Source of the DNA: Kiritimatiellia bacterium
Lineage (GTDB): Bacteria; Verrucomicrobiota; Kiritimatiellia; RFP12; UBA1067
DNA: 56,722 nucleotides
Assembly: GCA_045598785.1 (NCBI GenBank)
Contig: JAZLMR010000068.1
Coordinates: 1-56,722 of the forward strand
Direction of reading: 5' to 3'
The position numbers were made by a program, and so were the translations under genes. The notes beneath the pieces are model-generated. The model was not told where the DNA came from. It was given only the letters and a program-made list of their open reading frames with translations, and ran no database searches. Positions 1-33,312 of the stretch are shown here, piece by piece. Within the stretch, counting starts at the first letter, position 1, and every line of letters begins with the position of its first letter.

Positions 1-132
1 GTCTTCGGCGGCATAAAGGACAATTATCCCAAGTATCTGCTGACAATGGACGATGTCTTCGTGCCGGATCACAATGGCGTCCGCACGCTGAATGTCATCG
101 ACTACCTTCTCGGCAAATGCGAATTGGATTAA
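1..132 (+). CDS. 3' end of an AAA/DUF4143-type ATP-binding protein gene (5' part lies outside the window)
   Basis: An open frame runs from the window edge to TAA at 130-132. The tail ...KDNYPKYLLTMDDVFVPDHNGVRTLNVIDYLL resembles the C-termini of COG1373-like stand-alone ATPases. It is followed by the same 23-nt repeat that follows the intact ATPase gene at 2283-3632. Confidence 0.45.
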   Translation, partial: VFGGIKDNYPKYLLTMDDVFVPDHNGVRTLNVIDYLLGKCELD

Positions 133-145
133 GTTGAGAACTGAA

Positions 146-168
146 TTTGAAAGGAAAAACGAAAATGA
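146..168 (+). repeat. Copy 1 of the exact 23-nt direct repeat TTTGAAAGGAAAAACGAAAATGA
   Basis: An identical 23-mer recurs at 3628-3650. Both copies lie at or just past the 3' end of an ATPase gene, in AT-rich sequence that stands out from the GC-rich surroundings. Confidence 0.9.
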
Positions 169-222
169 AGAGGGGCTCAGGGTCAGAGTTTATTGATGTA
201 GTAGCATTGATAGGTAAATTGC

Positions 223-799
223 ATGAGCTACTCTATTAGTGATACTATGTCAACCGGTGCCGACGGTGACGACAATTGCGCTGACACGGTGGTGCACGGC
301 GCAATCCGCACGGCGGAGACCGAGAAGCCGGTTGCCGAGGCCCTTGCCATCAAGGACGGCAAGTTCGTCTACGTCGGTGACGCGGCTGGCGTGGCGGCGT
401 ACATCCAAGATGGTGTCACCAAGGTTGTCGACCACCGCGGTAAGGGCATGGTGATGCCAGGTTGCACCGATGGCCACGCGCACTATATCTTGCCCATCAC
501 CCTGGCCAACATGAAGGGTGGGGTCCTGTTCGGACATGAAGACGGCAAGGCGGAGATCCTGCGGAAGCTGGACGCGGCTGCACGTGCCGCGAAGGAGTCC
601 GGGAAGAAGAGCCTGCGTCGCCGGCATGACCTGGCACATTGGCCTTGAGGAAGGTGTGAAGGCCTTTTTGACCTTCTTTGATGAAGACTACCTCGCCGAC
701 CAGGACGTGTTTGACTGCCCAGTGACCGACATCCGCAAGACCAAGGTGGTCTCAACTTGGTTTGAGGGAAGCGAGGTCTATTCCCGCAACGCGAAGTGA
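223..799 (+). pseudogene. Decayed amidohydrolase (YtcJ/amidohydrolase_3-like) gene with large internal deletions and a frameshift
   Basis: ORF 223-648 encodes ADTVVHGAIRTAETEKPVAEALAIKDGKFVYVGD...GKGMVMPGCTDGHAHY. ORF 518-799, in another frame, encodes AGMTWH...ADQDVFDCPVTDIRKTKVVSTWFEG. These match the N-terminal, mid and C-terminal parts of the amidohydrolase module of the 28417-33312 protein (about 80 percent nucleotide identity by eye). Roughly 0.9 kb and 0.3 kb are missing. Confidence 0.75.
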
Positions 800-897
800 T
801 TTGGGTTGCTGAACGCAGGCTTTCCTTTTCACAAGCAGCAATTTCACCAAACGGGTGAAAATCAAGATTGCCAAATTATGATCCATATCTATCCAAA

Positions 898-921
898 CCT
901 CTGTGCCTCTGTGTCTCTGTG
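898..921. repeat. Short tandem repeat (YCTCTGTG) x3
   Basis: cctctgtg cctctgtg tctctgtg read directly, within an AT-rich non-coding stretch. Confidence 0.9.
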
Positions 922-1113
922 TTTAAATATCGGCGAGCTGGCAGGATTTAACTGCCGAATTTAGGTTTGGCGGCCCAGCGTTAATCCCGTAGCCCTCCGC
1001 CAAGCGGAAATCTCAATCGTACTGCCGACCGTAGCCGACATTGCGCTGCAAAACCGAGAAGGAAGAATTCGGCCGCGCGGTTGAAGGGCGCAGGTAAAGC
1101 GCCTTGAAGGCCA

Positions 1114-1566
1114 GTGGCGGCGCGTCCGCTGACGGACTATAACGGCAATACCGTTTCGATTGCGTTTACGGGCGACATCCCCGACGGCGCGGAGGTTTCG
1201 GCGAAGGTGACGATCGGCGGAGTAGATTACACGAAGGACGTCACCCTCGAGCAAGGCACGTTCAAGGTCGACGAGGATGCGGAGTGGATCGCGGAATCCG
1301 CCGCGTCGTTCGAGTCGACCGGCGCGTGGTCGGGAGACCAGGCCGAGGTCTCCGGCGGGGTGATCGCCGTCTCCAACGCGCTCTTCACCGCGGCGAAGGC
1401 GGCGCCGGAGGACGCGGCGACCGGATATGTCGCCAAGGACGTGACCGGCTTGCAGATCAAATTCGGCCCGCACACTACTGTCGCGCAGTATTATTCCGAG
1501 ATTGAGGCGGTCGAATCCGCGAGTCCTGTCGCACCGGTTCAGGGTACGGTCTTCACGATCGAGTGA
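1114..1566 (+). CDS. Hypothetical protein, possibly the C-terminal remnant of a larger surface protein
   Basis: 150-aa ORF with a GTG start and GC-rich third codon positions. No recognisable motif and no convincing SD sequence. It lies among truncated genes. Confidence 0.3.
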   Translation: MAARPLTDYNGNTVSIAFTGDIPDGAEVSAKVTIGGVDYTKDVTLEQGTFKVDEDAEWIAESAASFESTGAWSGDQAEVSGGVIAVSNALFTAAKAAPEDAATGYVAKDVTGLQIKFGPHTTVAQYYSEIEAVESASPVAPVQGTVFTIE

Positions 1567-1592
1567 CGGATAACTTATAGGGGGACGACAAA

Positions 1593-2177
1593 ATGAATGC
1601 GAAGATGCTGATGTTCGCCCTGGTCGCCGCGTGCACCGGTGTCGTGACGGCGGGTGTTCATTATGATTCGATCCGTCCCGGACAGGAATGGCTCGATACC
1701 GAAGGGCGTCCGATCCAGGCGCACGGCGGCTCGATCATTGCGGTTGACGACGTCTACTACTGGTACGGCGAGAACAAGGAGCATACCTGCGGGACGAACG
1801 ACGTCTGGCACTGGGGCGTGAACCTGTATTCGTCCAAGGACCTGATGAACTGGAAGTTCGAGGGTAATGTCATTCCGCCGGATCTCACGGACGAGAAGTC
1901 GCCGCTCAATCCGCATTCGCAGATGGACCGTCCGCATATCCTCTACAATGCCGCGACGAAGAAGTTCGTCTGCTGGCTCAAGATCATGTCGCGCGAGGAC
2001 TACCTGCTGCAGACCGAGATGGTGCTGACGGCCGATTCACTGAAGGGTCCGTGGACGATCGTCCGCACGGGGTTCCGTCCCTGCGGGATGAGCGGCGGTG
2101 ATTTCGACCTCGTCAAGGCGTACGACGGCAAGGCGAATAGAGGCGGGGCCTGGCCCCACAGATTCTGGGGCGTGTAA
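1593..2177 (+). pseudogene. 3'-truncated glycoside hydrolase family 43-like gene (signal peptide plus the first ~175 aa of the beta-propeller)
   Basis: Signal peptide MNAKMLMFALVAACTG, then HGGSIIAVDDVYYWYGENKE...YSSKDLMNWKFEG...DRPHILYN, typical of the GH43 N-terminal blades. Homology stops after GDFDLVKAYDGKA and the frame ends 15 codons later. The break coincides with the palindromic element at 2143-2158. Confidence 0.6.
2143..2158. repeat. Variant copy GCGGGGCCTGGCCCCA of the palindromic element
   Basis: It differs from GCGGGGACTGTCCCCA at two positions (A>C and T>G) that pair with each other in the hairpin, so the 6+6 inverted repeat is preserved. It lies exactly where the GH43 homology ends. 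Confidence 0.8.
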
Positions 2178-2196
2178 TGTGTGCGATGGGATGTTC

Positions 2197-2250
2197 TTTC
2201 GGTTGAATTATGTGTGCAGAATTGAATTGTTTCGGTTGAAAAATGTGTCT
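2197..2250 (+). repeat. Two 21-nt direct repeats, TTTCGGTTGAAWWATGTGTNY, spaced 33 bp start to start
   Basis: tttcggttgaattatgtgtgc (2197-2217) and tttcggttgaaaaatgtgtct (2230-2250). They lie immediately upstream of the ATPase promoter. A third ATGTGTGC occurs at 2177-2184. Confidence 0.8.
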
Positions 2251-2256
2251 CGTGGG

Positions 2257-2265
2257 TGCTATAAT
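2257..2265 (+). promoter_or_regulatory. Extended -10 promoter element TGCTATAAT
   Basis: TGnTATAAT lies 17 nt upstream of ATG 2283, with the SD sequence GAGGAGG at 2274-2280. Confidence 0.6.
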
Positions 2266-2282
2266 ATTCGCCGAGGAGGCAT

Positions 2283-3632
2283 ATGCAGAGACGAGTATTA
2301 GGTGATATTGAGTCGTGGAATGCGAAAAATAAGCGCAAACCACTGGTTCTCATGGGAGCACGGCAGGTCGGCAAGACCTGGCTGATGGAGGAATTTGCCA
2401 AACGGGCCTATCCGGGTGATACGGTTACGGTGAATTTTATGGAGGATGATCCGATCCGTGAGAGTTTTGAGCGTGCGAATCTTGATCCCGTCATCCTTAT
2501 TGGACTTCTTCAGGCACGAAGCGGCAAGCGCATCATTCCCGGCAAGACGCTGCTTGTACTTGATGAGATTCAGGAATCGCCCCGTGCACTCACTTCGCTC
2601 AAGTTCTTCAATGAGAAAATGCCCGAGCTGGCCGTGATGGCCGCAGGGTCGCTTCTCGGACTGAGTCTGCGCCGCGAACGGGGAAAGCGCAGTCCGGAGC
2701 GCCGCGGATCGTTTCCCGTCGGCAAGGTCGAGTTCCTCGATGTCCGTCCGATGACGTTCGCCGAGTTCTTGGAGGCACGCGGGGAGAGCGTGAAACTCGA
2801 GGAACTTGCGTCGGGCCGCTGGGATGTCGTCGACCTCATCCATGACGAGCTTGTCGGGCTGCTCAAGGACTACTATCTTGTCGGCGGCATGCCGGAGGCG
2901 GTTCAGACCTTCGTCGATACAGGCGATTACCATGAGACGCGCAGGGTGCAGAAGCGCATTCTGCGGGCCTACGACAAGGATTTCGTCAAACACGCCGAGC
3001 CGACCTTGCTCGGGCGCATCCGCCTTCTGTGGAAGAACATTCCCGCCCAGCTGGCGAAGGAGAACGCGAAGTTCGTCTACAAGGTGCTGAAGGAGGGCGC
3101 GCGCGGACGGGATTACGAGGAGTCCCTGCAGTGGCTGGACGACGCGGGCATGATCACGCAGCTGTTCCGCGCCAATCCGCCGCGTCTGCCGCTCAGGTCC
3201 TACGAGGATTTCTCCGCGTTTAAGCTGTTCATGCACGACGTCGGGCTTCTGGGGGCGATGAGTGACCTGCCGCCCTCGGCCGTCCTCGAGGGCAACGCCG
3301 TGTTCACGAACTTCAAGGGGGCGCTGACCGAGCAGTATGTCCTGCAGGAACTTCTCGCGGCGGGGGCGTCCCCGGCCTACTGGTCCTCGGAACGGGGAGA
3401 TGCGGAAGTTGATTTCCTGCTGCAGGGGGCGGACGCGGTCTATCCGGTCGAGGCCAAGGCGGAGCGCAATCTCAAGGCCAAGAGCCTCAAGACCTACCGG
3501 GAGTTCTTCAGCCCGCCGCGCTGCTATCGCACGTCGCTCGAGCGGCATCACGTCGGGAAGCTGACGGAGGACGTGCCGCTTTACGCGGTCGGCAGGATCG
3601 TCGCAGAAACTGGAAGCGAGCGTTTGTTTTGA
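2283..3632 (+). CDS. Stand-alone AAA ATPase with DUF4143-like C-terminal region (COG1373-like)
   Basis: Walker A LMGARQVGKTW and Walker B LLVLDEIQ. Length (449 aa) and overall layout are typical of this family. A good SD sequence and promoter lie upstream. Confidence 0.85.
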   Translation: MQRRVLGDIESWNAKNKRKPLVLMGARQVGKTWLMEEFAKRAYPGDTVTVNFMEDDPIRESFERANLDPVILIGLLQARSGKRIIPGKTLLVLDEIQESPRALTSLKFFNEKMPELAVMAAGSLLGLSLRRERGKRSPERRGSFPVGKVEFLDVRPMTFAEFLEARGESVKLEELASGRWDVVDLIHDELVGLLKDYYLVGGMPEAVQTFVDTGDYHETRRVQKRILRAYDKDFVKHAEPTLLGRIRLLWKNIPAQLAKENAKFVYKVLKEGARGRDYEESLQWLDDAGMITQLFRANPPRLPLRSYEDFSAFKLFMHDVGLLGAMSDLPPSAVLEGNAVFTNFKGALTEQYVLQELLAAGASPAYWSSERGDAEVDFLLQGADAVYPVEAKAERNLKAKSLKTYREFFSPPRCYRTSLERHHVGKLTEDVPLYAVGRIVAETGSERLF

Positions 3633-3650
3633 AAGGAAAAACGAAAATGA
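3628..3650 (+). repeat. Copy 2 of the exact 23-nt direct repeat TTTGAAAGGAAAAACGAAAATGA
   Basis: Identical to 146-168. Here the repeat contains the TGA stop codon of the ATPase gene. Confidence 0.9.
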
Positions 3651-3671
3651 TGAAAAAGGAAAAGTGAAAAA

Positions 3672-3998
3672 GTGCGGATGTCCTTACTTCTTGCTTTTTC
3701 ACTATTACTTTTTACTTCCGCCGCGCGGGCGGCGGTGATTGACGTAACGTCGGGGAACTTCGAGAGCTGCCGTGCGCTCAAGGACGGTAACACCTATCGG
3801 TTCGTCGAGAGTGTCACTTTCGCCGCGCCAGCGACCGAGAGCGCAATGGCGGTGGCGGACGGTGCGACCGTTACGCTGAACATCGCGGCTGGCGTGACCG
3901 TTTCGCTGCGCGGTGGTGACGCAGTTGGCACGACCGGCGCGGGCGCGGGCATCGAGGTTCCTGCGAGCGCGAATTGCTGTGGGGACAGTCCCATCTGA
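3672..3998 (+). CDS. Truncated secreted repeat protein (signal peptide plus the start of a beta-helix/Pmp-like passenger)
   Basis: Signal peptide MSLLLAFSLLLFTSAARA (ATG at 3678), then ...ATVTLNIAAGVTVSLRGGDAVGTTGAGAGIEV, typical of the N-termini of large surface proteins. The frame stops abruptly inside the palindromic element at 3977-3993. Confidence 0.45.
   Translation: MRMSLLLAFSLLLFTSAARAAVIDVTSGNFESCRALKDGNTYRFVESVTFAAPATESAMAVADGATVTLNIAAGVTVSLRGGDAVGTTGAGAGIEVPASANCCGDSPI
3683..3719 (-). repeat. AT-rich purine-run element (minus orientation) related to 35142-35180
   Basis: The reverse complement, GGAAGTAAAAAGTAATAGTGAAAAAGCAAGAAGTAAG, aligns with queA GGAAGAAGTAAAAAGTAAAAGTGAAGAAGTAAGAAGTGG with few mismatches. 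With the purine run at about 3650-3674 it forms an imperfect inverted repeat (AGTGAAAAAG / CTTTTTCACT). Confidence 0.7.
3977..3993. repeat. Palindromic element copy in inverted flank orientation, CTGTGGGGACAGTCCCA
   Basis: The reverse complement, TGGGACTGTCCCCACAG, contains GGGACTGTCCCCA of the core. It lies at the junction between the truncated secreted-protein ORF and unrelated sequence. Confidence 0.7.
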
Positions 3999-4076
3999 AT
4001 TACTTGCCTTTGATTTTGGGTGATGGCGGTTGAGCGAATGTGTTTGAATCTGGTGGTTGCGCTCTTGTTGAAAGGC

Positions 4077-4319
4077 AACTCGGAATGCCTGCGCCGCTGC
4101 GGCATCATCGACGGCAAGGGCAAGGTTCTCATCGGCAAGATCGACGGTGGCGTTCTCGAACTCGACGGGAAGGGCTGCCCGACCGGATTCGTCGACGAGC
4201 GCGTCACGGGGTATCTGACGCGCATGGGCGGAATCGACGCGGACGAGATTGTCGACGACAAGCTGGCGGAGACCTATGAGGTGGAGCCCTGGCAGAAGGA
4301 CATCGGCAGGCAGATCTAA
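4077..4319 (+). pseudogene. Second amidohydrolase fragment (middle part of the module)
   Basis: It encodes ECLRRCGIIDGKGKVLIGKIDGGVLELDGKGCPTGFVDERVTGYLTRMGGIDADEIVDDKLAE then TYEVEPWQ. These match the 28417-33312 protein at about nt 31547-31745 and 31886-31930, which is a part missing from the fragment at 223-799. Confidence 0.7.
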
Positions 4320-4362
4320 AAATCTAAAAATTTTGCGCTTCCTGCATTCGTTGGTCAATCTA

Positions 4363-4371
4363 TGGTATAAT
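4363..4371 (+). promoter_or_regulatory. Extended -10 promoter element TGGTATAAT for the hydrogenase operon
   Basis: TGnTATAAT is followed by the SD sequence AAGGAG (4383-4388) and ATG 4397. Confidence 0.6.
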
Positions 4372-4396
4372 TTAGCCTTAATAAGGAGACTGAATT

Positions 4397-6208
4397 ATGG
4401 ATATGAATCAAGCTAGCGCGGCCTCGAAAAAAGTCGCGGAGCTTTATGCCGATGTCGTGCGCCGCGCCGGCTCGTCGCCGTTTGGCAGTTGCCCGGTGGA
4501 ACTCACTGCCGCTTTCATTCGCCTGTGCCTCGCCCAAAGCTGCGGTAAATGCGTTCCCTGCCGCGTCGGGCTGGATCGGCTGGCGGGCATCATTGAGCGT
4601 ATCCTCGCCCGGGAGGCGGGTGAAGACGAGCTGGCGCTCCTGGAAAATCTGGCCCGTTCGATTTACGATTCCGCCGACTGCGCCATCGGGTTCGAGGCCG
4701 CCAAGCTGGTGCTGGACGGGATGACGGCGTTTCGCGACGACTATCTCGCCCATGTCCGCACGGGCGTGTGCACGACGAACTTCGCCAGCGTGCCGTGCGC
4801 CACCGGCTGCCCGGCGCATGTCAACATCCCCGGCTACATCGCCTGCATCGGCGCCGGTCGCTATGCCGACGCCGTGCGCGTCATCCGCGAGGACAATCCC
4901 TTTCCTTCGGTCTGCGGGCTCATTTGCGAGCATCCGTGCGAGCGCTATTGCCGTCGCAATACGGTCGACGACGCCATCAACATCCGCGGGCTCAAGCGCT
5001 ATGCGGTCGAGAAGTCGGGTTCGGTGCCCGCGCCAGCGCCGGCGCCGCGGAACGGCAAGCGCGTCGGCATTGTCGGCGGCGGCCCCGCCGGGCTTACGGC
5101 CGCCTATTTCCTGGCGCTCAAGGGCTTCGAGGTCACCGTCTATGAAAAGCGGCGCTCGCTGGGTGGCATGCTTCGCTACGGTATTCCCGCCTATCGGCTG
5201 CCCGACCAGAATCTCGACTGGGACATTGACGTCATCCTCTCGACCGGGGTCAAGGTGGTCTACGGCCAGGAGGTCGGCAAGGACATTGCCTTTGAAGGCT
5301 TTCGCAAGCAATTTGACGCGGTCTACATTTCCATCGGCGCGCATGGCGCCAAAAAGCTGCGGATCGAGGGCGAGAATGCGAAGGGCGTCCTTTCGGCCGT
5401 CGAGTTGCTCGGGGCGGTCGGCGAAGGCGAGCGGCCGGATTTCTCCGGCAAGCGCGTGGTCGTGGTCGGCGGCGGCAATGTCGCGATGGATGCGACGCGC
5501 ACTTCGCGGCGGCTGGGCGCCAAGTCGGTCACTTGCGTCTATCGCCGGCGAGTCGTCGATATGACGGCGCTCCCTGACGAGATCGCGGGAGCCGAGGCCG
5601 AAGGCTGCGAGATCGTGCCGCTGATGGCGCCGGTCAAGGTGGCGGTCGAAAACGATCAGGTCGTCGGGCTGGTGGTCAAGCCGCAGCTCCCCGGGGCGGT
5701 CAAGGACGGGCGTCCGGCGCCGGTTGATGCGGCCGAGCCGGAAACGACGATTCCGTGCGACATCGTAGTCGTTGCCATCGGCCAGGACATCGATTCGAAA
5801 GCGTTCGCAGAATATGGTATTGAGGTCAAACGCGGGGCGCTGGTCGCCAATGCCGCGGGCGAAGTCCGCAAGGCGGGCGAGAAGCTCGCGGGGGTCTTTA
5901 CCGGCGGCGACTGCTGGAGCGGTCCGGCGACGGTCATCCGCGCCATCGACGCCGGCAAGGTCGCGGCGGAGAACGTCGCCGAGTTCTGCGGCTGCAATCT
6001 GCCGCTCGCGAAGACGGTGGAGATTCCAGCGGCGCCGGCGGGCCAGCGGCTGCATTGGGGTCGCGTCAACATGACGGAACGTCCGGCTGCGGAACGGGCG
6101 CAGGACTTTGACTTGATGGAGAAGTGCCTGACGGACGAGGAGGCGCAGCAGGAGTGCAGCCGGTGCCTCCGTTGCGACCATTGCGGCAAAGGGGCGTTTC
6201 GGCGCTGA
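4397..6208 (+). CDS. NAD(P)H-dependent oxidoreductase: NuoF-type Fe-S domain + GltD-like (glutamate synthase small subunit-like) + C-terminal Cys cluster; probable diaphorase partner of the hydrogenase
   Basis: SCGKCVPCRVG (NuoF C-terminal 4Fe-4S motif). CEHPCERYC. GIVGGGPAGLTAAYFLALKGFEVTVYEKRRSLGGMLRYGIPAYRLP (GltD-type dinucleotide fold). A second GGGNVAMD fold. CSRCLRCDHCG at the C-terminus. Confidence 0.85.
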   Translation: MDMNQASAASKKVAELYADVVRRAGSSPFGSCPVELTAAFIRLCLAQSCGKCVPCRVGLDRLAGIIERILAREAGEDELALLENLARSIYDSADCAIGFEAAKLVLDGMTAFRDDYLAHVRTGVCTTNFASVPCATGCPAHVNIPGYIACIGAGRYADAVRVIREDNPFPSVCGLICEHPCERYCRRNTVDDAINIRGLKRYAVEKSGSVPAPAPAPRNGKRVGIVGGGPAGLTAAYFLALKGFEVTVYEKRRSLGGMLRYGIPAYRLPDQNLDWDIDVILSTGVKVVYGQEVGKDIAFEGFRKQFDAVYISIGAHGAKKLRIEGENAKGVLSAVELLGAVGEGERPDFSGKRVVVVGGGNVAMDATRTSRRLGAKSVTCVYRRRVVDMTALPDEIAGAEAEGCEIVPLMAPVKVAVENDQVVGLVVKPQLPGAVKDGRPAPVDAAEPETTIPCDIVVVAIGQDIDSKAFAEYGIEVKRGALVANAAGEVRKAGEKLAGVFTGGDCWSGPATVIRAIDAGKVAAENVAEFCGCNLPLAKTVEIPAAPAGQRLHWGRVNMTERPAAERAQDFDLMEKCLTDEEAQQECSRCLRCDHCGKGAFRR

Positions 6209-28416: not shown

Positions 28417-31400
28417 ATGAAGCAACTGATGACGGCAGTGGCGGGTATGGTGTTGGCGCTTGGTGCCTTTTCGGCGTTTGCCGGGGAGCCTGGTCCGCGT
28501 CTTGTGCCGGACTACGACCGCAACGGGGTGATCGACGAGGCCGATTGTATACGGGCTGCCGCGAACGAGCCGTTCACCATCTGGCTCAATGACGACGATG
28601 ATGCCGCAGGCGCGGAAGTGGACGAAGGCAAGGGAGATGTCAACACCGACCTGCATGACGTTCCCGGAGGGAATGATGAGAAGGACTGCGAGGACGACAA
28701 GGTCAACGGACGCTGCGACCTCCTTGATTTCTTCCCCGTGCTCGTGGATGTGACTGGTGTGGACGATTGGGCGAATTACACCTGGAAGCTGAGTTCGGAG
28801 TCCGTTAACGTCGTATTCACCAGGTTGAATCCGAATTTTGCGGGCGACTTTCACACGAAGACCGTTCAGGGCTGGGATGTCGAGTCGCCGCTTTATCAGG
28901 CAGCGGTCTCGAAGCTTGCGAATGGTGATGTCGTACTGCCAGATGGTTTTTTCACATGCGAGAACCACTATGGCAGGGGAGTTCTTTTGGTCGAAGGCGC
29001 CGCGTTTGCGAACGCCGGCGGCATCACGCTTCGCGGCGAGAAGGAGTCCGGCGACCACGTCGAGGTGACGCTGGACCTTCGTGTCAAGAATGTGGAGGAC
29101 ATGTACGGGTGGATGAATTTGAGGGATCAGGGATCAGAAGGGGATCGGTTAGCGCCACGACGCGAGGACGCGTCGGGTACGATGTTGGACAACCGGCACT
29201 TTGTGCTTGTTCACGGTTACAACACGAACCACGAGGAGGCGAGGGGCAACGCCGCGGAGTTCTACAAGAAACTCTGGCAGTCCGGCTCGGACGCGATGTT
29301 CACCGCGGTCGAGTGGAACGGCAACCAGTCGCAGATTAAGTTCGATGAACTTGGCGTCAACTTCACGCCGAACTACTTTGTGAACGTCGCGAACGCCTTG
29401 GCGGCGGCGAAGCCGTTCGCGGAAGCGTGCAAACGGCTGTCGGGCGAGAAGATCCTCGTCGGGCACTCCCTCGGCAACGTGCTGATTTCGTCCGCCATCA
29501 AGGATCATGGCCTCGACTACACGAAGTTCGTAATGCTCAACGCGGAGATCGCTGGGAAGGATTTTGCTGCGGACGGGCGCTTCGCCAAGCTGCCGCGGAC
29601 GATCAACTGCTATTCGCCCTCCGATTCGTTTTTGGAGGAATCCGAATTTGATGTCGAGCATTGCGACGACAGCCGTGAGTTTCTCGCCGCTTTTTGTCAA
29701 GAAGCCGGATTTTGGTCGCTGAACGCGAAGATCAAGACGAGCGGGAAGGCGGTGGGCTGGGTCAATGAGTTCATCATCAACCGCCTTGAGCTGGCCGAGG
29801 CAGAAGCGATTACGCCCGAACAACTCGCGTACGCCGGCGTGATCGAGATGCCCGCTGCGGGCGCGAATCCGGTCGCGACGCTGGAGAACGTGAATATGGA
29901 GGACTTCATTGGCGAGAATTGGCCGGTTGTCGAGGAGGGAACGGGGAATGGAGAACAGGGAATAGCGGATCGGGAGAAGGAGTGGCAGCACTCGACTTTT
30001 AGGGAGGTCGCGTTCTACCACACCTCGAAGTTTTACGCTTCGCTGGCCGCGGTCGGCAAGCCGCGCGTCATCATCGACACGGACCTCGGCTCAAGCATAG
30101 ACGACCTCTTCACGATTGATCTTGCGGCGCGGATGCACAAGGCGGGCAAGCTCGACCTGATGGCGGTGATGATGGACCGTCCTGACGGGAGCAATGCATC
30201 CGACGATCCGCACGGGAGGGGCGAGTTCCTGAAGTTCGCCGACCGCTACCTCGCTTCGCTTGGACTTGGAGACCTGCCGATCGGGGTGTCGACGCCACTG
30301 ACAGAAGATCGCCTGCCACAGCATGTGTTCAATCCCTATTGGACGCTCATCTACTCGAACAACCTGACGAGTGTCGGTCTGATGCTGCCGACGAATCGCA
30401 CGGACGAGCAGATTGGCGCCCTTACGAACGCGGTCGTTCTCTACCGGCGGCTCCTCGAGGACGCGCAGCCTAAGTCGGTCGTCATCTGCTCGCTCGGCTT
30501 CCTCAACAACCTGAAGGCGTTGATGGAGTCGGGCCTGAATTACGGGGACGATGGCATTCAGTCCACGGGCAAGGAACTCATCGCGGCGAAGGTGAAGGAG
30601 TTGCGCATCATGGCCGGATGCTTCGATCCGTCCACCGCGCCGGACGGCAAGGATGGCGCCGAATATAACGCGGCAGGTGATCCTGCGGGAACGAAGAAGG
30701 TCTTCGAGGAATGGCCGACGCCGGTTGTCGTCAGCACATGGGAGGTGGGACTGAATCTGTGGTACGATCCGAAGGACGTCCTGGCAGACTTCCCGCCCGG
30801 CACGCTAGATCCGGTTGTTCGCGCCGTCTACACGTATTGGCCTGATCGGGCGGCGGACGGCATCAACCGTCTCTGGGACGTGATGACGGTGCTGCCGCTT
30901 TTTGAGGGCGAGGCGCTGGCGCCGTTGTCGGAGATGGGCGGAATTTCGGTGGATGAGAAGGGCGTGACGACATTCACGCCCGATCCGTCCAGCAACCGCT
31001 GCTACCAGGTCGCGTCGAGCATGGACGCGACGGCGGTGATGGAGCGGATTCGGACGCTCTGCCGGACGGGCAATCCGTCGGCAGACACGGTGGTGTACGG
31101 GACGATCCGCACCGCCGAGACGGGGAATCCGGTCGCCGAGGCCATCGCCGTCAAGGACGGCAGGTACGTCTACGTCGGCGACGAGGCCGGTGCGGCGGCG
31201 TTCATTGAGGACGGCGTCACCAAGGTCGTCGACCACCGCGGCAAGGGTATGGTGATGCCCGGTTGCACCGACGGACATTCGCACTACACGATGCTTTTCG
31301 GTCTCGTCCACATGAAGGGTGGCGTCAAGTTCGAGTACACAGACGACAAGGCGATGGTCCTGCAAAAACTGAAGGCGGCTTCGCAGGCGGCGAAAGATGC

Positions 31401-33312
31401 TGGGAAGCAGACCCTCTTTTCCATTGGTTGGAACTACTACACCTTCCGGATGGGCGAAGGACTGACCTTGGAGGAGCTGGACGCGGCTACGCTCGGGGTG
31501 TCTGCGGTTCTCTTCGATTCTAACGGTCACAGCGCTTACTGCAATACGGAATGTCTGAAGCGCTGCGGCATCATCGACGGCGCGGGAAACGTGCTGATCA
31601 CGAAGATTGACGGCGGTCTTCTGGAACTGGACGGCAACGGATACCCCACCGGATTCGTGCAAGAGCGCGTCTCGGGGTATCTGACGCGTATGGGTGGAAT
31701 CATCGCGGACGAGAACATCGATGACAAGGTGGCGGAATCCGTCGTGCGTGAGTCCCAGGAGCTTTTGCTGTCCACGGGTTATACTATCGCGCTGGAAGGA
31801 TGGAGCAACCAGTTGCATCCAAGCAAGTTCTATGAAGCCGCGCATCGGTTGGACACCAATGGGGAGTTTAAGATCGTATTCCCCATGACCTACGAAGTGG
31901 AGCCGTGGCAGACGAACATGACCAGCGAGATCGACCATCTCGCCTCGCTTAAGGAGACGTACGGGACGCGACACGTGCTGCCGAGCTATCTGAAGATCTT
32001 TATGGACGGCTGCGTGGAAACCAAGACCGGCGCGATGGTTGATCCATACCAGGACACGGATCACACCGTTTACAAGAGTTTCTGGGCCACGAACCGCCTC
32101 GCGGACATCACCAGGGCGTGCAACGCCAAGGGACTGACCGTACACACCCACACCATGGGCGATGCCGCCATCCGGGATGTGACTGACGCCTATATCCAGG
32201 GCGGCGACGGCACGCATCGCAATTGCCTGGTGCATCTCCGCAACGTGCGTCCGGAAGATTTCCAGCGTTTCGCCGAGAACAACATCGCCTGCACCGCCGG
32301 TATGACCTGGCATGTGATCAACGGGGGAGGGTCTGATGAACATATGGTGGGTTTCCTGGATGAGAAATATATCAAGCACGCCTACCCGATGAAGTCCTTC
32401 TTCGACGCCGGTGTCAAGGTCTCCAGTCATACGGACTTCCCGGCAAACGGCGGCTGTCCGCAGGATCCGTTCGGGATCATGCAAGTCGCCGTCACCGGAT
32501 TGATTCCAAACCCTCCGGATGGCATGACGCCGTTCGACACGGACGAGCTGATCACGCGCGAGCAGGCGTTCCAGGCGCTGACGCTGAACGGAGCGTGGCA
32601 GATGGGCCTCGAAAACGAGCGCGGCAGCATCAAGGTCGGCAAGTGGGCGGACTTCGTGCTCGCCGACCAGGACGTGTTCGAATGCGAGACGTCCGACATC
32701 GGCAAGACCAAGGTCGTCTCCACCTGGTTTGAGGGGGAGAAGGTCTTTGAGGCGTCTGAGTCGGTGTCGGTCAAGCCGGGTGAGCAGATTGTTCGCGACA
32801 CGGCCGAGGAGGCGTCGAACGTCATGAAGCGGGCCGTGTTCACCCCGAGCGCAAAGGTCGCGGAGGAGTTGGGTGGCGAAGGGTCGACGGTGTTGCAAAC
32901 ATATTGCAATATGTTCACGCTGGACGTCGTGCCGACCTCGGACGGCAAATGGGCGGTTGCGGCGTTTCTCTTGCCGCCGGACTGGACGAACGTCGTCAAG
33001 TCGGCTCAGGCGGCGACGTTGCAGATTCCGGTGGCGGAGCTTGCGGCGTATCCGTATGGCGAACCGCTGAAAAACGTGCCGCTCACGAACTGCGTGCCGG
33101 GCTTCTACTATTCGCTTTATGACGGGACGGCCGTGACGAACCTCAAGGCGGATCTCAACTCGGACAACTGCAATCTTCTCTGCGGTCCGGGTGCGACGGT
33201 GACGATCCCCGTGGTGCCGCATAACCCTGCGTCGGGCTTCTACTCCATCGGGGTGCTTGAGGCCCCGGTAGTCGTCCCCGGCAAAACCGAAACCGCCACA
33301 ATGGCGGAGTAG
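28417..33312 (+). CDS. 1631-aa secreted multi-enzyme fusion. Approximate modules: signal peptide (aa 1-23); Ca-binding PAD_M-like domain (aa 30-240); DUF900/lipase-like alpha/beta hydrolase (aa 259-420); nucleoside hydrolase (IUNH)-like domain (aa 549-880); amidohydrolase_3 (YtcJ-like) (aa 890-1444); unknown C-terminal ~185 aa
   Basis: Signal peptide MKQLMTAVAGMVLALGAFSAFA. WLNDDDD...DCEDDKVNGRCDLLDFFPV resembles the PAD4 middle-domain stretch VNCDRD...DCEDDEVLDSEDLQDM. FVLVHGYNTNHEEA plus VGHSLGN give a serine hydrolase nucleophile elbow. VIIDTDLGSSIDD is an IUNH-type Asp cluster with a 2-residue longer spacer. MPGCTDGHSHY...AGMTWH...SSHTDFP...VVSTWFEG is amidohydrolase_3. By eye, the third codon positions are less GC-rich than in the neighbouring genes. 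Confidence 0.75.
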   Translation: MKQLMTAVAGMVLALGAFSAFAGEPGPRLVPDYDRNGVIDEADCIRAAANEPFTIWLNDDDDAAGAEVDEGKGDVNTDLHDVPGGNDEKDCEDDKVNGRCDLLDFFPVLVDVTGVDDWANYTWKLSSESVNVVFTRLNPNFAGDFHTKTVQGWDVESPLYQAAVSKLANGDVVLPDGFFTCENHYGRGVLLVEGAAFANAGGITLRGEKESGDHVEVTLDLRVKNVEDMYGWMNLRDQGSEGDRLAPRREDASGTMLDNRHFVLVHGYNTNHEEARGNAAEFYKKLWQSGSDAMFTAVEWNGNQSQIKFDELGVNFTPNYFVNVANALAAAKPFAEACKRLSGEKILVGHSLGNVLISSAIKDHGLDYTKFVMLNAEIAGKDFAADGRFAKLPRTINCYSPSDSFLEESEFDVEHCDDSREFLAAFCQEAGFWSLNAKIKTSGKAVGWVNEFIINRLELAEAEAITPEQLAYAGVIEMPAAGANPVATLENVNMEDFIGENWPVVEEGTGNGEQGIADREKEWQHSTFREVAFYHTSKFYASLAAVGKPRVIIDTDLGSSIDDLFTIDLAARMHKAGKLDLMAVMMDRPDGSNASDDPHGRGEFLKFADRYLASLGLGDLPIGVSTPLTEDRLPQHVFNPYWTLIYSNNLTSVGLMLPTNRTDEQIGALTNAVVLYRRLLEDAQPKSVVICSLGFLNNLKALMESGLNYGDDGIQSTGKELIAAKVKELRIMAGCFDPSTAPDGKDGAEYNAAGDPAGTKKVFEEWPTPVVVSTWEVGLNLWYDPKDVLADFPPGTLDPVVRAVYTYWPDRAADGINRLWDVMTVLPLFEGEALAPLSEMGGISVDEKGVTTFTPDPSSNRCYQVASSMDATAVMERIRTLCRTGNPSADTVVYGTIRTAETGNPVAEAIAVKDGRYVYVGDEAGAAAFIEDGVTKVVDHRGKGMVMPGCTDGHSHYTMLFGLVHMKGGVKFEYTDDKAMVLQKLKAASQAAKDAGKQTLFSIGWNYYTFRMGEGLTLEELDAATLGVSAVLFDSNGHSAYCNTECLKRCGIIDGAGNVLITKIDGGLLELDGNGYPTGFVQERVSGYLTRMGGIIADENIDDKVAESVVRESQELLLSTGYTIALEGWSNQLHPSKFYEAAHRLDTNGEFKIVFPMTYEVEPWQTNMTSEIDHLASLKETYGTRHVLPSYLKIFMDGCVETKTGAMVDPYQDTDHTVYKSFWATNRLADITRACNAKGLTVHTHTMGDAAIRDVTDAYIQGGDGTHRNCLVHLRNVRPEDFQRFAENNIACTAGMTWHVINGGGSDEHMVGFLDEKYIKHAYPMKSFFDAGVKVSSHTDFPANGGCPQDPFGIMQVAVTGLIPNPPDGMTPFDTDELITREQAFQALTLNGAWQMGLENERGSIKVGKWADFVLADQDVFECETSDIGKTKVVSTWFEGEKVFEASESVSVKPGEQIVRDTAEEASNVMKRAVFTPSAKVAEELGGEGSTVLQTYCNMFTLDVVPTSDGKWAVAAFLLPPDWTNVVKSAQAATLQIPVAELAAYPYGEPLKNVPLTNCVPGFYYSLYDGTAVTNLKADLNSDNCNLLCGPGATVTIPVVPHNPASGFYSIGVLEAPVVVPGKTETATMAE

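Follow-up and report, generated by a model that had tools for sequence, protein, structure and literature searches.

Repetitive extragenic palindromes (REPs), the bacterial interspersed mosaic elements (BIMEs) and REP doublets forming hairpins (REPINs), and the REP-associated tyrosine transposases (RAYTs) with which they make up 'REPtrons' (PMC3333891, PMC3116915, PMC3479197) are the closest described counterparts of a pair of short hairpins that we analysed in the genome of a Kiritimatiellia bacterium. The E. coli enzyme, TnpA-REP, is always flanked by REPs, requires a mismatch in the stem, cleaves and strand-transfers single-stranded REP/BIME DNA, and reshuffles REP arrays in vitro (PMC3333891). 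REPs are also targeted by insertion sequences (PMC1525189). The stretch under study, hereafter the window, is an entire contig of 56,722 nucleotides (C68, 56.7 kb) from a metagenome-assembled genome of 2.06 Mb (G000; 111 contigs, 62% GC, 85% complete). Within the first 4.3 kb, which is a mosaic of gene fragments, two 13-nt palindromes stand where two genes have lost their 3' parts, a GH43 gene and a gene for a secreted beta-helix protein, and each lies at the 5' edge of a control region belonging to an ATPase gene of the PDC-S01 type. Our results favor a model whereby the palindromes are REPs that mediated recombination or deletion and now sit at the resulting joins, on the 5' edge of an ATPase unit that is portable, and we put the probability of this model at about 0.5. 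Shyamala et al. reportedly described REPs, in 1990, as join points of chromosomal duplications. Such an arrangement, with REP/RAYT repeats where rearranged segments meet, is known in kind; the link to PDC-S01 is modest and, to our knowledge, had not been described before.

The palindromes are REP sequences, and sister species possess the RAYT-type Y1 transposase cognate to them. We assign them to this class because their family flanks the transposase gene in congeners, mostly as inverted pairs. The family has the consensus GGGGNCWGNCCCC; its canonical form, GGGGACWGTCCCC, is present in 34 copies in the source genome, in addition to variants, and in 0-66 copies per congener, with 0-1 for reversed-pattern controls. 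Beyond the genus, only 2 of 16 genomes have family members (1 and 3 copies); the family is genus-specific and patchy. A search of the congeners for the CC/GG variant seen at the left window palindrome led to an inverted pair, GGGGCCAGGCCCC and GGGGCCTGGCCCC, 1050 nt apart (G009:C236), which encloses an open reading frame (ORF) of 287 aa. The product scores 39.9 bits against PF01797 (Y1_Tnp; cut-off 23), and its best NCBIfam model is REP_Tyr_transpos (NF047646; E 4e-20, with 72.2 bits, below that model's cut-off of 80), with just 21.6 bits against the IS200 model. Its best PDB match is E. coli TnpA-REP itself (4er8), with the HUH (HFHVIV) and Y..NP motifs aligned. Eleven RAYT homologues from other genomes are bracketed by family members as well, 10 of the 11 on both sides and mostly in inverted orientation, at -22 to -440 nt and +19 to +131 nt, and the RAYT-flanking copies have a common tail, RCGAAAMC. 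We also observed that seven RAYT ORFs (L174-L179 and L182, from G002, G019, G023, G005, G018, G003 and G007) carry a REP of their own about 620 nt inside, at a fixed place.

The likeness to described REPtrons thus extends to an imperfect, GC-rich palindrome that is short and present in tens of copies, to a Y1 HUH transposase gene that in congeners is REP-bracketed, mostly inverted, to the occurrence of REP doublets and tandem arrays, and to the many members with a mismatch in the stem, as needed by the E. coli enzyme. The family differs from described REPs in that its core is merely 13 nt and in that the GTAG/CGTC tag (PMC3333891, PMC3733652) was not seen, by inspection only, at the foot of the hairpin in either the RAYT-flanking or the window copies. 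The transposase, at 287 aa and in multiple copies in some congeners, is another difference, and no intact RAYT gene was found in the source assembly. Furthermore, most copies in the source genome are in frame within genes: all 39 copies of the 11-nt core lie inside open frames of at least 80 codons, rather than in extragenic DNA, and the translated in-frame copies mostly read GTVP, GDSP or GLSP, many of them in recognisable enzymes; a few copies are in promoter regions. Some tandem arrays (C10:21809-21864 and C99:4811-4877 of the source genome) have spacers, AAAAATGTG or GAAAAATGCG, that resemble the operator core of the ATPase promoter, and the C99 array lies in the divergent promoter region beside a cysteine-desulfurase-like gene. 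The 13-nt palindrome of this Kiritimatiellia genus can in this way be identified concretely, as a REP family that has a RAYT-type transposase, and this renders the odd in-frame copies within housekeeping genes testable.

Both window palindromes are present where an earlier reading of the sequence alone, made without database searches (the sequence-only reading), had placed them. The left REP unit (2135..2165, no strand assigned), delimited by sequence inspection and pattern search, reads GAAT-agaggc-GGGGCCTGGCCCC-acag-ATTC, or GAATAGAGGC-GGGGCCTGGCCCC-ACAGATTC, with its core at 2145-2157; the right unit (3971..4001, likewise unstranded) reads GAATTGCTGT-GGGGACAGTCCCA-TCTGAATT, with its core, which matches the canonical one at 12 of 13 positions, at 3981-3993. 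The degenerate pattern GGGGMCWGKCCCC, allowing at most one mismatch, covers both palindromes together with a form found at rnhB/folP and has seven sites in the window versus 0.39 expected from shuffles. The left core is the sole copy of GGGGCCTGGCCCC (CC/GG form) in the 2.06-Mb assembly and, compared with the rnhB/folP form, is changed at positions 5 and 9 (A..T to C..G), which would pair with each other. The earlier inference of a compensatory change that conserves the hairpin is correct as a description of these two sequences, but it does not demonstrate selection for the hairpin because many common variants, including RAYT-flanking ones, are unpaired at positions 5 and 9 (among the common family members, GGGGTCTGTCCCC and GGGGACAGGCCCC). 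The left unit is identical at 18 of 19 positions to the REP flanking the G009 RAYT gene, support that in a wider-flank alignment is limited to these 19 nt (p ~0.03), and its 17-mer recurs in the right copy of an inverted REP doublet in another congener (G005:C40, GGGGCCTGGCCCCACAG). As had been noted, the two window palindromes also share sequence beyond the hairpin, the inner flanks CCCCACAG..ATTC, with a 2-nt gap. This extra match amounts to about 8 nt including a gap, and similar inner flanks are found at G005:C40 and at C97:8278 of the same genome, where the GAATT..TGT flank of the right REP recurs too. Each REP unit in itself forms a longer imperfect palindrome (GAAT...ATTC), so that the pair looks inverted as well, and this is the source of the view that the two palindromes behave as terminal inverted repeats.

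One argument for a role of the REPs comes from the breakpoints. The GH43 gene (1593..2135, + strand; ORF 1593-2177; assigned by Pfam GH43) comprises codons 1-181 only. It has 66% identity to the nearest congener protein, which is a full-length relative of 384 aa, and the similarity stops at residue 181 (GCG, 2133-2135); a search for the C-terminal half across the assembly found it absent. Similarly, the secreted beta-helix gene (3672..3971, + strand; ORF 3672-3998) is 3'-truncated after codon 100, as judged by alignment with homologues of 589-4937 aa, which extends only to residue 100-101, and codon 100 is GCG (3969-3971). In both genes, the final homologous codon, GCG, is followed by AAT, six further bases and the palindrome core, such that exactly 9 nt separate each breakpoint from its core and GCGAAT is common to the two in register. 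The proposal that each palindrome sits precisely where homology ends is therefore borne out at both sites, 'precisely' meaning that the core begins 9 nt after codon 181 on the left and 9 nt after codon 100 on the right. Two chance coincidences of a breakpoint with a REP are very unlikely because there are only about 45-65 family members per 2 Mb.

This regularity bears directly on the possibility that the REPs are bystanders, which were inserted later or are present by chance in a decaying region shaped by ordinary illegitimate recombination. Several joins in the region have no REP, REPs insert widely in the genome, including within genes, and the left core could be a chance GC hairpin, for which base composition gives an estimate of about 4-5 per genome (GGGGNCNGNCCCC with complementary positions 5 and 9). 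We nevertheless regard bystander REPs as quite improbable in view of two independent joins at an identical distance from the core with GCGAAT in register, of the matches of the left copy to the G009 RAYT-flanking REP over 19 nt and to the G005 copy over 17 nt, and of the enrichment of REPs at ATPase 5' boundaries described below.

The right-hand sides of the two joins resemble each other as well. The left REP unit is followed by the intact ATPase control region (2166 onward), and the right one by an operator-like remnant of such a region (4012..4050, + strand), in which GATTTTGGG, GATGG, CGGTTGA, ATGTGT and GAAT align colinearly with 2162-2225. Over a longer distance, 3970-4085 is colinear with 2136-2290 (blocks GATTYTGGG, GATGG, CGGTTGA, ATGTGT and GAAT), CGGTTGAGCGAATGTG lies 33 nt right of the right palindrome, and CGGTTGA-N3-4-ATGTG has only three sites in the genome, two in the ATPase operators (2200 and 2233) and one at 4027. 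On their left, both REP units are joined at the same point (GCG|AAT) to a 3'-truncated gene. Together, the shared GCGAAT and the right-hand remnant indicate a module, 'GCGAAT-REP-operator', that is present twice in direct order, 1836 nt apart. Because the right palindrome is trailed by the operator-like remnant, the pair is better read as a direct duplication of the 5' end of the ATPase unit than as inverted ends. We considered a downstream operator copy as a normal feature of the cassette and rejected it, as the operators of close homologues are upstream only.

The 1.85-kb block between the palindromes (2143-3993) is composite and not a clean cassette. The contents listed in the sequence-only reading (direct repeats, a promoter, a DUF4143 ATPase gene and an AT-rich hairpin) are all there, and the block also takes in the resident beta-helix gene from its leader through codon 100. 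A 1.85-kb non-autonomous cassette with terminal inverted repeats of 22-25 nt, as once suggested, is not supported in that form: the ends are copies of a genome-wide repeat, a second copy of the block is nowhere to be found, its junction regions are unique in the source genome, the nearest relatives share only 2196-3538, and what could pass for a target-site duplication is a 4-nt GAAT outside the ends, at chance level. The other suggestion, that the hairpin is a hotspot for recombination or deletion, fares better. The REPs lie where unrelated segments meet in a 4.3-kb stretch of fragments and are members of a REP/RAYT family; a causal role of the REPs in the joins, and the enzyme responsible, are our inference. 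In our model, REP units would have been present beforehand at the cassette boundary and possibly also within the GH43 and beta-helix genes. Recombination would then have taken place at or between the hairpins, either by RAYT-dependent cleavage and strand transfer or by illegitimate or unequal exchange between REPs, and the DNA between the hairpins would have been lost or duplicated, leaving one REP per join. A precedent comes from REPs as targets of insertion sequences (PMC1525189; ISPpu9, PMC8450116). In the window, too, a REP is found exactly at the boundary of a portable unit, and at rearrangement joins; in contrast, the adjoining unit is a single defence-candidate gene without a transposase, and the joins truncate coding genes.

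The portable unit in question centers on the ATPase gene (2283..3632, + strand), which encodes AAA_14 and DUF4143 domains (Pfam, 6e-20 and 1e-34) and matches the PADLOC profile of PDC-S01, a candidate phage-defence system (PDLC04786, E 2.1e-157). DUF4143 has been placed in the PD-(D/E)XK nuclease superfamily (PMC3424549). Besides the profile match, the gene has in common with PDC-S01 (COG1373) the two-domain architecture and the organization as a self-contained gene with its own repeat-bearing promoter. The control region (2166..2282, + strand) contains three ATGTGT-core repeats about 33 nt apart, of which two are direct repeats (2197-2216 and 2230-2249, period 33) and the third is degenerate (2174-2184), and a promoter, TTGAAA-18-TATAAT (2236-2265, 11/12). 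A layout of 3 x 33 nt plus TATAAT also precedes homologues in congeners and metagenomes, and the homologue loci examined have about three repeats with 33-nt spacing and AAAATGTG-like cores upstream of the gene. In the upstream regions of L031, L042, L045, L062, L082-L086, L097, L108 and L151, about three repeats with a 33-nt period end just before the -10 box; the bodies of such operator repeats vary by lineage and their cores resemble AAAA(A/T)GTG.

Nucleotide homology to the nearest relatives (73-74% aa identity; the closest ones from metagenomes are 74% identical at best) is restricted to 2196-3538, and the portable unit therefore has a size of about 1.45 kb. Congeners have 0-13 PDC-S01 genes each, in unrelated contexts. 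The ATPase gene, together with its operators and promoter, thus forms a portable unit that occurs in a variety of contexts. On the left, this unit abuts the left REP unit, its degenerate first repeat following about 5 nt after ...ACAGATTC; on the right, it does not end at the palindrome: the last ~7 codons and the stop run into a 23-nt leader. In one congener (L062, G002:C47), a PDC-S01 unit of ~1.6 kb lies between 81-nt direct repeats with 95% identity (1370-1450 and 2948-3028), and at L097 a unit, likewise of ~1.6 kb, lies between 100-nt direct repeats with 82% identity (1-100 and 1642-1741). The direct repeats around the G002:C47 and RHMF01071570 units are the 3' end of the neighbouring gene, and at L062 the left repeat stops 8 nt before the first operator, resembling an insertion scar of unusual length. 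These direct-repeat flanks show that ATPase units do insert. PDC-S01 is a very common but uncharacterised defence candidate.

REPs are not part of the ATPase cassette, yet they are over-represented at its 5' boundary. Across the roughly 120 PDC-S01 loci surveyed, of which 40 belong to congeners and 80 to metagenomes, 13-mers with at most one mismatch to GGGGNCWGNCCCC numbered 7 per 32.9 kb in the zones from -300 to 0 and 13 per 407 kb, five of them in one array, outside these zones at the same loci, which corresponds to an approximately sevenfold enrichment directly upstream of the genes. For comparison, the REP density of the source genome is 0.031 per kb overall and 0.11 per kb in low-GC stretches. 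Most PDC-S01 loci have no REP, including all homologues at 73-74% identity, which lack one at either end. We therefore rejected the idea that PDC-S01 cassettes generally include the palindrome, since only 4 of ~40 congener loci have a member within a few hundred nt of the gene and the 73-74% homologues none. A family member is present on both sides of the ATPase at four loci (the window, G018:C1, LXOW01256710 and G016:C25). As regards the earlier proposal to look for other ATPase genes between the same inverted ends, the two REPs are inverted in only two of these loci and direct in the other two. At L151 and G016:C25, the REP is 5-10 nt away from the first operator, and at L151 and L108 a GAAT-led REP unit starts directly after the stop codon of the upstream gene.

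These observations also speak for a mobile cassette ended by REPs. According to this alternative, the ATPase unit or the whole block would have been mobilised in trans by a RAYT or IS200-like enzyme, or the REPs would serve as att-like sites; the two REPs would be the ends or a duplicated landing site, and the GH43 and beta-helix genes would have been broken by insertion. A defined end would account for the same position (GCG|AAT, 9 nt, REP) being joined to two different broken genes and fits the four double-flanked loci and the GAAT-led REP right after the upstream stop at L151 and L108, and the occurrence of the unit in many unrelated contexts, with 81-100-nt direct repeats at G002:C47 and RHMF01071570 as an insertion signature, agrees with mobility in general. 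However, the 3' halves of the GH43 and beta-helix genes do not resume after the block, where a different gene fragment is found, a foreign gene fragment lies inside the block, the block has no copy elsewhere, REP orientation is inconsistent at the four double-flanked loci, and close ATPase homologues (73-74% identity) lack a REP at either end. We accordingly consider REP-ended mobility unlikely. What stands of the earlier cassette idea is that the ATPase with its operators and promoter is portable, that REPs are enriched at its 5' side and that four loci are flanked on both sides. We also rejected the argument that hybrid REP halves prove a site-specific crossover, by attL/attR logic, as the four double-flanked loci disagree with one another in these halves.

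Other hairpin-bounded elements can be compared as well. Non-autonomous IS200/IS605 derivatives, such as palindrome-associated transposable elements (PATEs), and MITEs (miniature transposable elements with inverted repeats) resemble the block in having hairpin ends, no transposase inside and a fixed distance between join and hairpin. Here, in contrast, generic REPs of the kind spread over the genome form the ends, the block is present only once, part of its cargo is a broken host gene, and no conserved target tetranucleotide is evident. Integron cassettes with attC sites are likewise single-gene units bounded by imperfect palindromes, and attC recombines as a folded single strand; unlike them, the ATPase unit has its own promoter, the palindromes measure 13 nt versus 57-141 nt, there is no array beside an integrase, and the sites are scattered genome-wide inside genes.

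Several observations weigh against REP-mediated joining. GH43 and beta-helix homologues have no REP at the equivalent positions, and the REPs may therefore equally have come with the right-hand segment, which keeps the mobile cassette alive as an alternative. The alignment of the operator-like remnant is modest, being beaten by 15 of 3000 genomic segments (p ~0.005) and by 168 of 3000 shuffles (0.056). Other joins in the region (between two amidohydrolase fragments, A and C, at internal deletions and at a third fragment, B) have no REP, and the mosaic is thus not fully explained. The only RAYT match in the source assembly is weak and contains a stop codon. Relative to the low-GC background, the enrichment of REPs upstream of PDC-S01 genes is just ~2-3-fold, and among the ATPase loci fetched from palindrome-rich congeners, a member within a few hundred nt of the gene was found only at G018:C1 and, in degenerate form, at G016:C25 and G008:C46. 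Finally, no close relative confirms the ancestral state or the assembly, and none yielded an empty site: searches for proteins identical to the ATPase, to the neighbouring GltD-like protein and to the flank of L108 gave zero alternative contigs, and in the synteny and empty-site comparison the congeners were too diverged, with no close orthologue of a hydrogenase-linked gene or of the LicD-like flank in G018.

An assembly artefact, in which short repeats led to the fusion of sequence from different strains or loci within the first 4.3 kb of the contig, would be in keeping with a metagenome-assembled genome of 111 contigs and with a region at a contig end where short dispersed repeats abound. 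At 13-23 nt, however, the repeats in common are shorter than the final k-mers normally used, the fragments represent paralogues that have diverged (45-80% identity) rather than duplicates of sequence assembled elsewhere, and composition is continuous, making a chimera very improbable.

With REP-mediated joining as the preferred reading, the two REPs at gene-breaking joins are examples of how small hairpin repeats reshape a bacterial genome, with a measured but modest association between REPs and PDC-S01 gene boundaries. It is tempting to speculate, although we deem it distinctly unlikely, that REP hairpins and single-gene PDC-S01 candidates form a working partnership in which GAAT-led REP units act as landing pads or ends and a RAYT or the ATPase-nuclease moves or swaps the cassette. 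If so, host genes would be broken and fused by this reaction as well, since REPs lie within genes too.

The remainder of the mosaic contains additional fragments and repeats. The contig start cuts a further ATPase gene of the COG1373 type (ATPase 1) and leaves its 3' end (1..131, + strand), recognized by comparison of the C-terminus, which resembles that of a 425-aa Walker-A/B ATPase located upstream of a beta-helix gene in G038. A repeat search identified two exact copies of a 23-nt purine-rich leader repeat, TTTGAAAGGAAAAACGAAAATGA, copy a at 146..168 and copy b at 3628..3650 (both + strand); in G038, a leader of this type precedes the beta-helix gene directly after the COG1373 ATPase. The two copies are 3482 nt apart, and each follows or overlaps the stop of an ATPase gene. 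They enclose all gene fragments together with the complete ATPase gene (ATPase 2), and this stretch may be one insertion or duplication. A decayed amidohydrolase paralogue is represented by fragments A and C (223..799, + strand; 69% and 45% aa identity by tblastn to the intact copy at 31081-32748) and, out of order and with an internal deletion, by fragment B (4050..4319, + strand; 77% aa identity to 31543-31740). The order of the pieces is thus A, C ... B, with in-frame internal deletions relative to the intact copy. A further C-terminal fragment ORF spans 1114-1566.

Two dispersed repeat families are also present. Members of the first, ~105 nt long (1022-1134), occur in ~30 copies with 80-95% identity in the genome, many of them less than 1 kb from contig ends, and one copy (C49:5673-5775) lies between the stop codon of a gene and the promoter of another PDC-S01 ATPase. 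It had no Rfam match, as Rfam gave nothing credible across window 1-4500, and could be a MITE or an RNA element. The second (840-968), which contains CTCTGTGCCTCTGTGTCTCTGTG, has ~15 copies in the genome and short matches in several congeners. In the metagenome locus L108, 4431-4465 is of a different nature: contig LXOW01256710.1 ends there in CTGTCTCTTATACACATCT, which we take to be Nextera adapter sequence contaminating a public metagenome contig.

At the start of the beta-helix gene, a proposed 8-nt duplication causing a frameshift was unsupported, as a MAFFT alignment with G038 is colinear with zero indels. An AT-rich inverted repeat at this position (3653..3713, + strand) pairs the leader with the signal-peptide codons (fold -13.7 kcal/mol, z -5.6). 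The hairpin region is conserved at the nucleotide level in another genus (window 3653-3713; L079 1490-1570), and the hairpin may be a translational control element.

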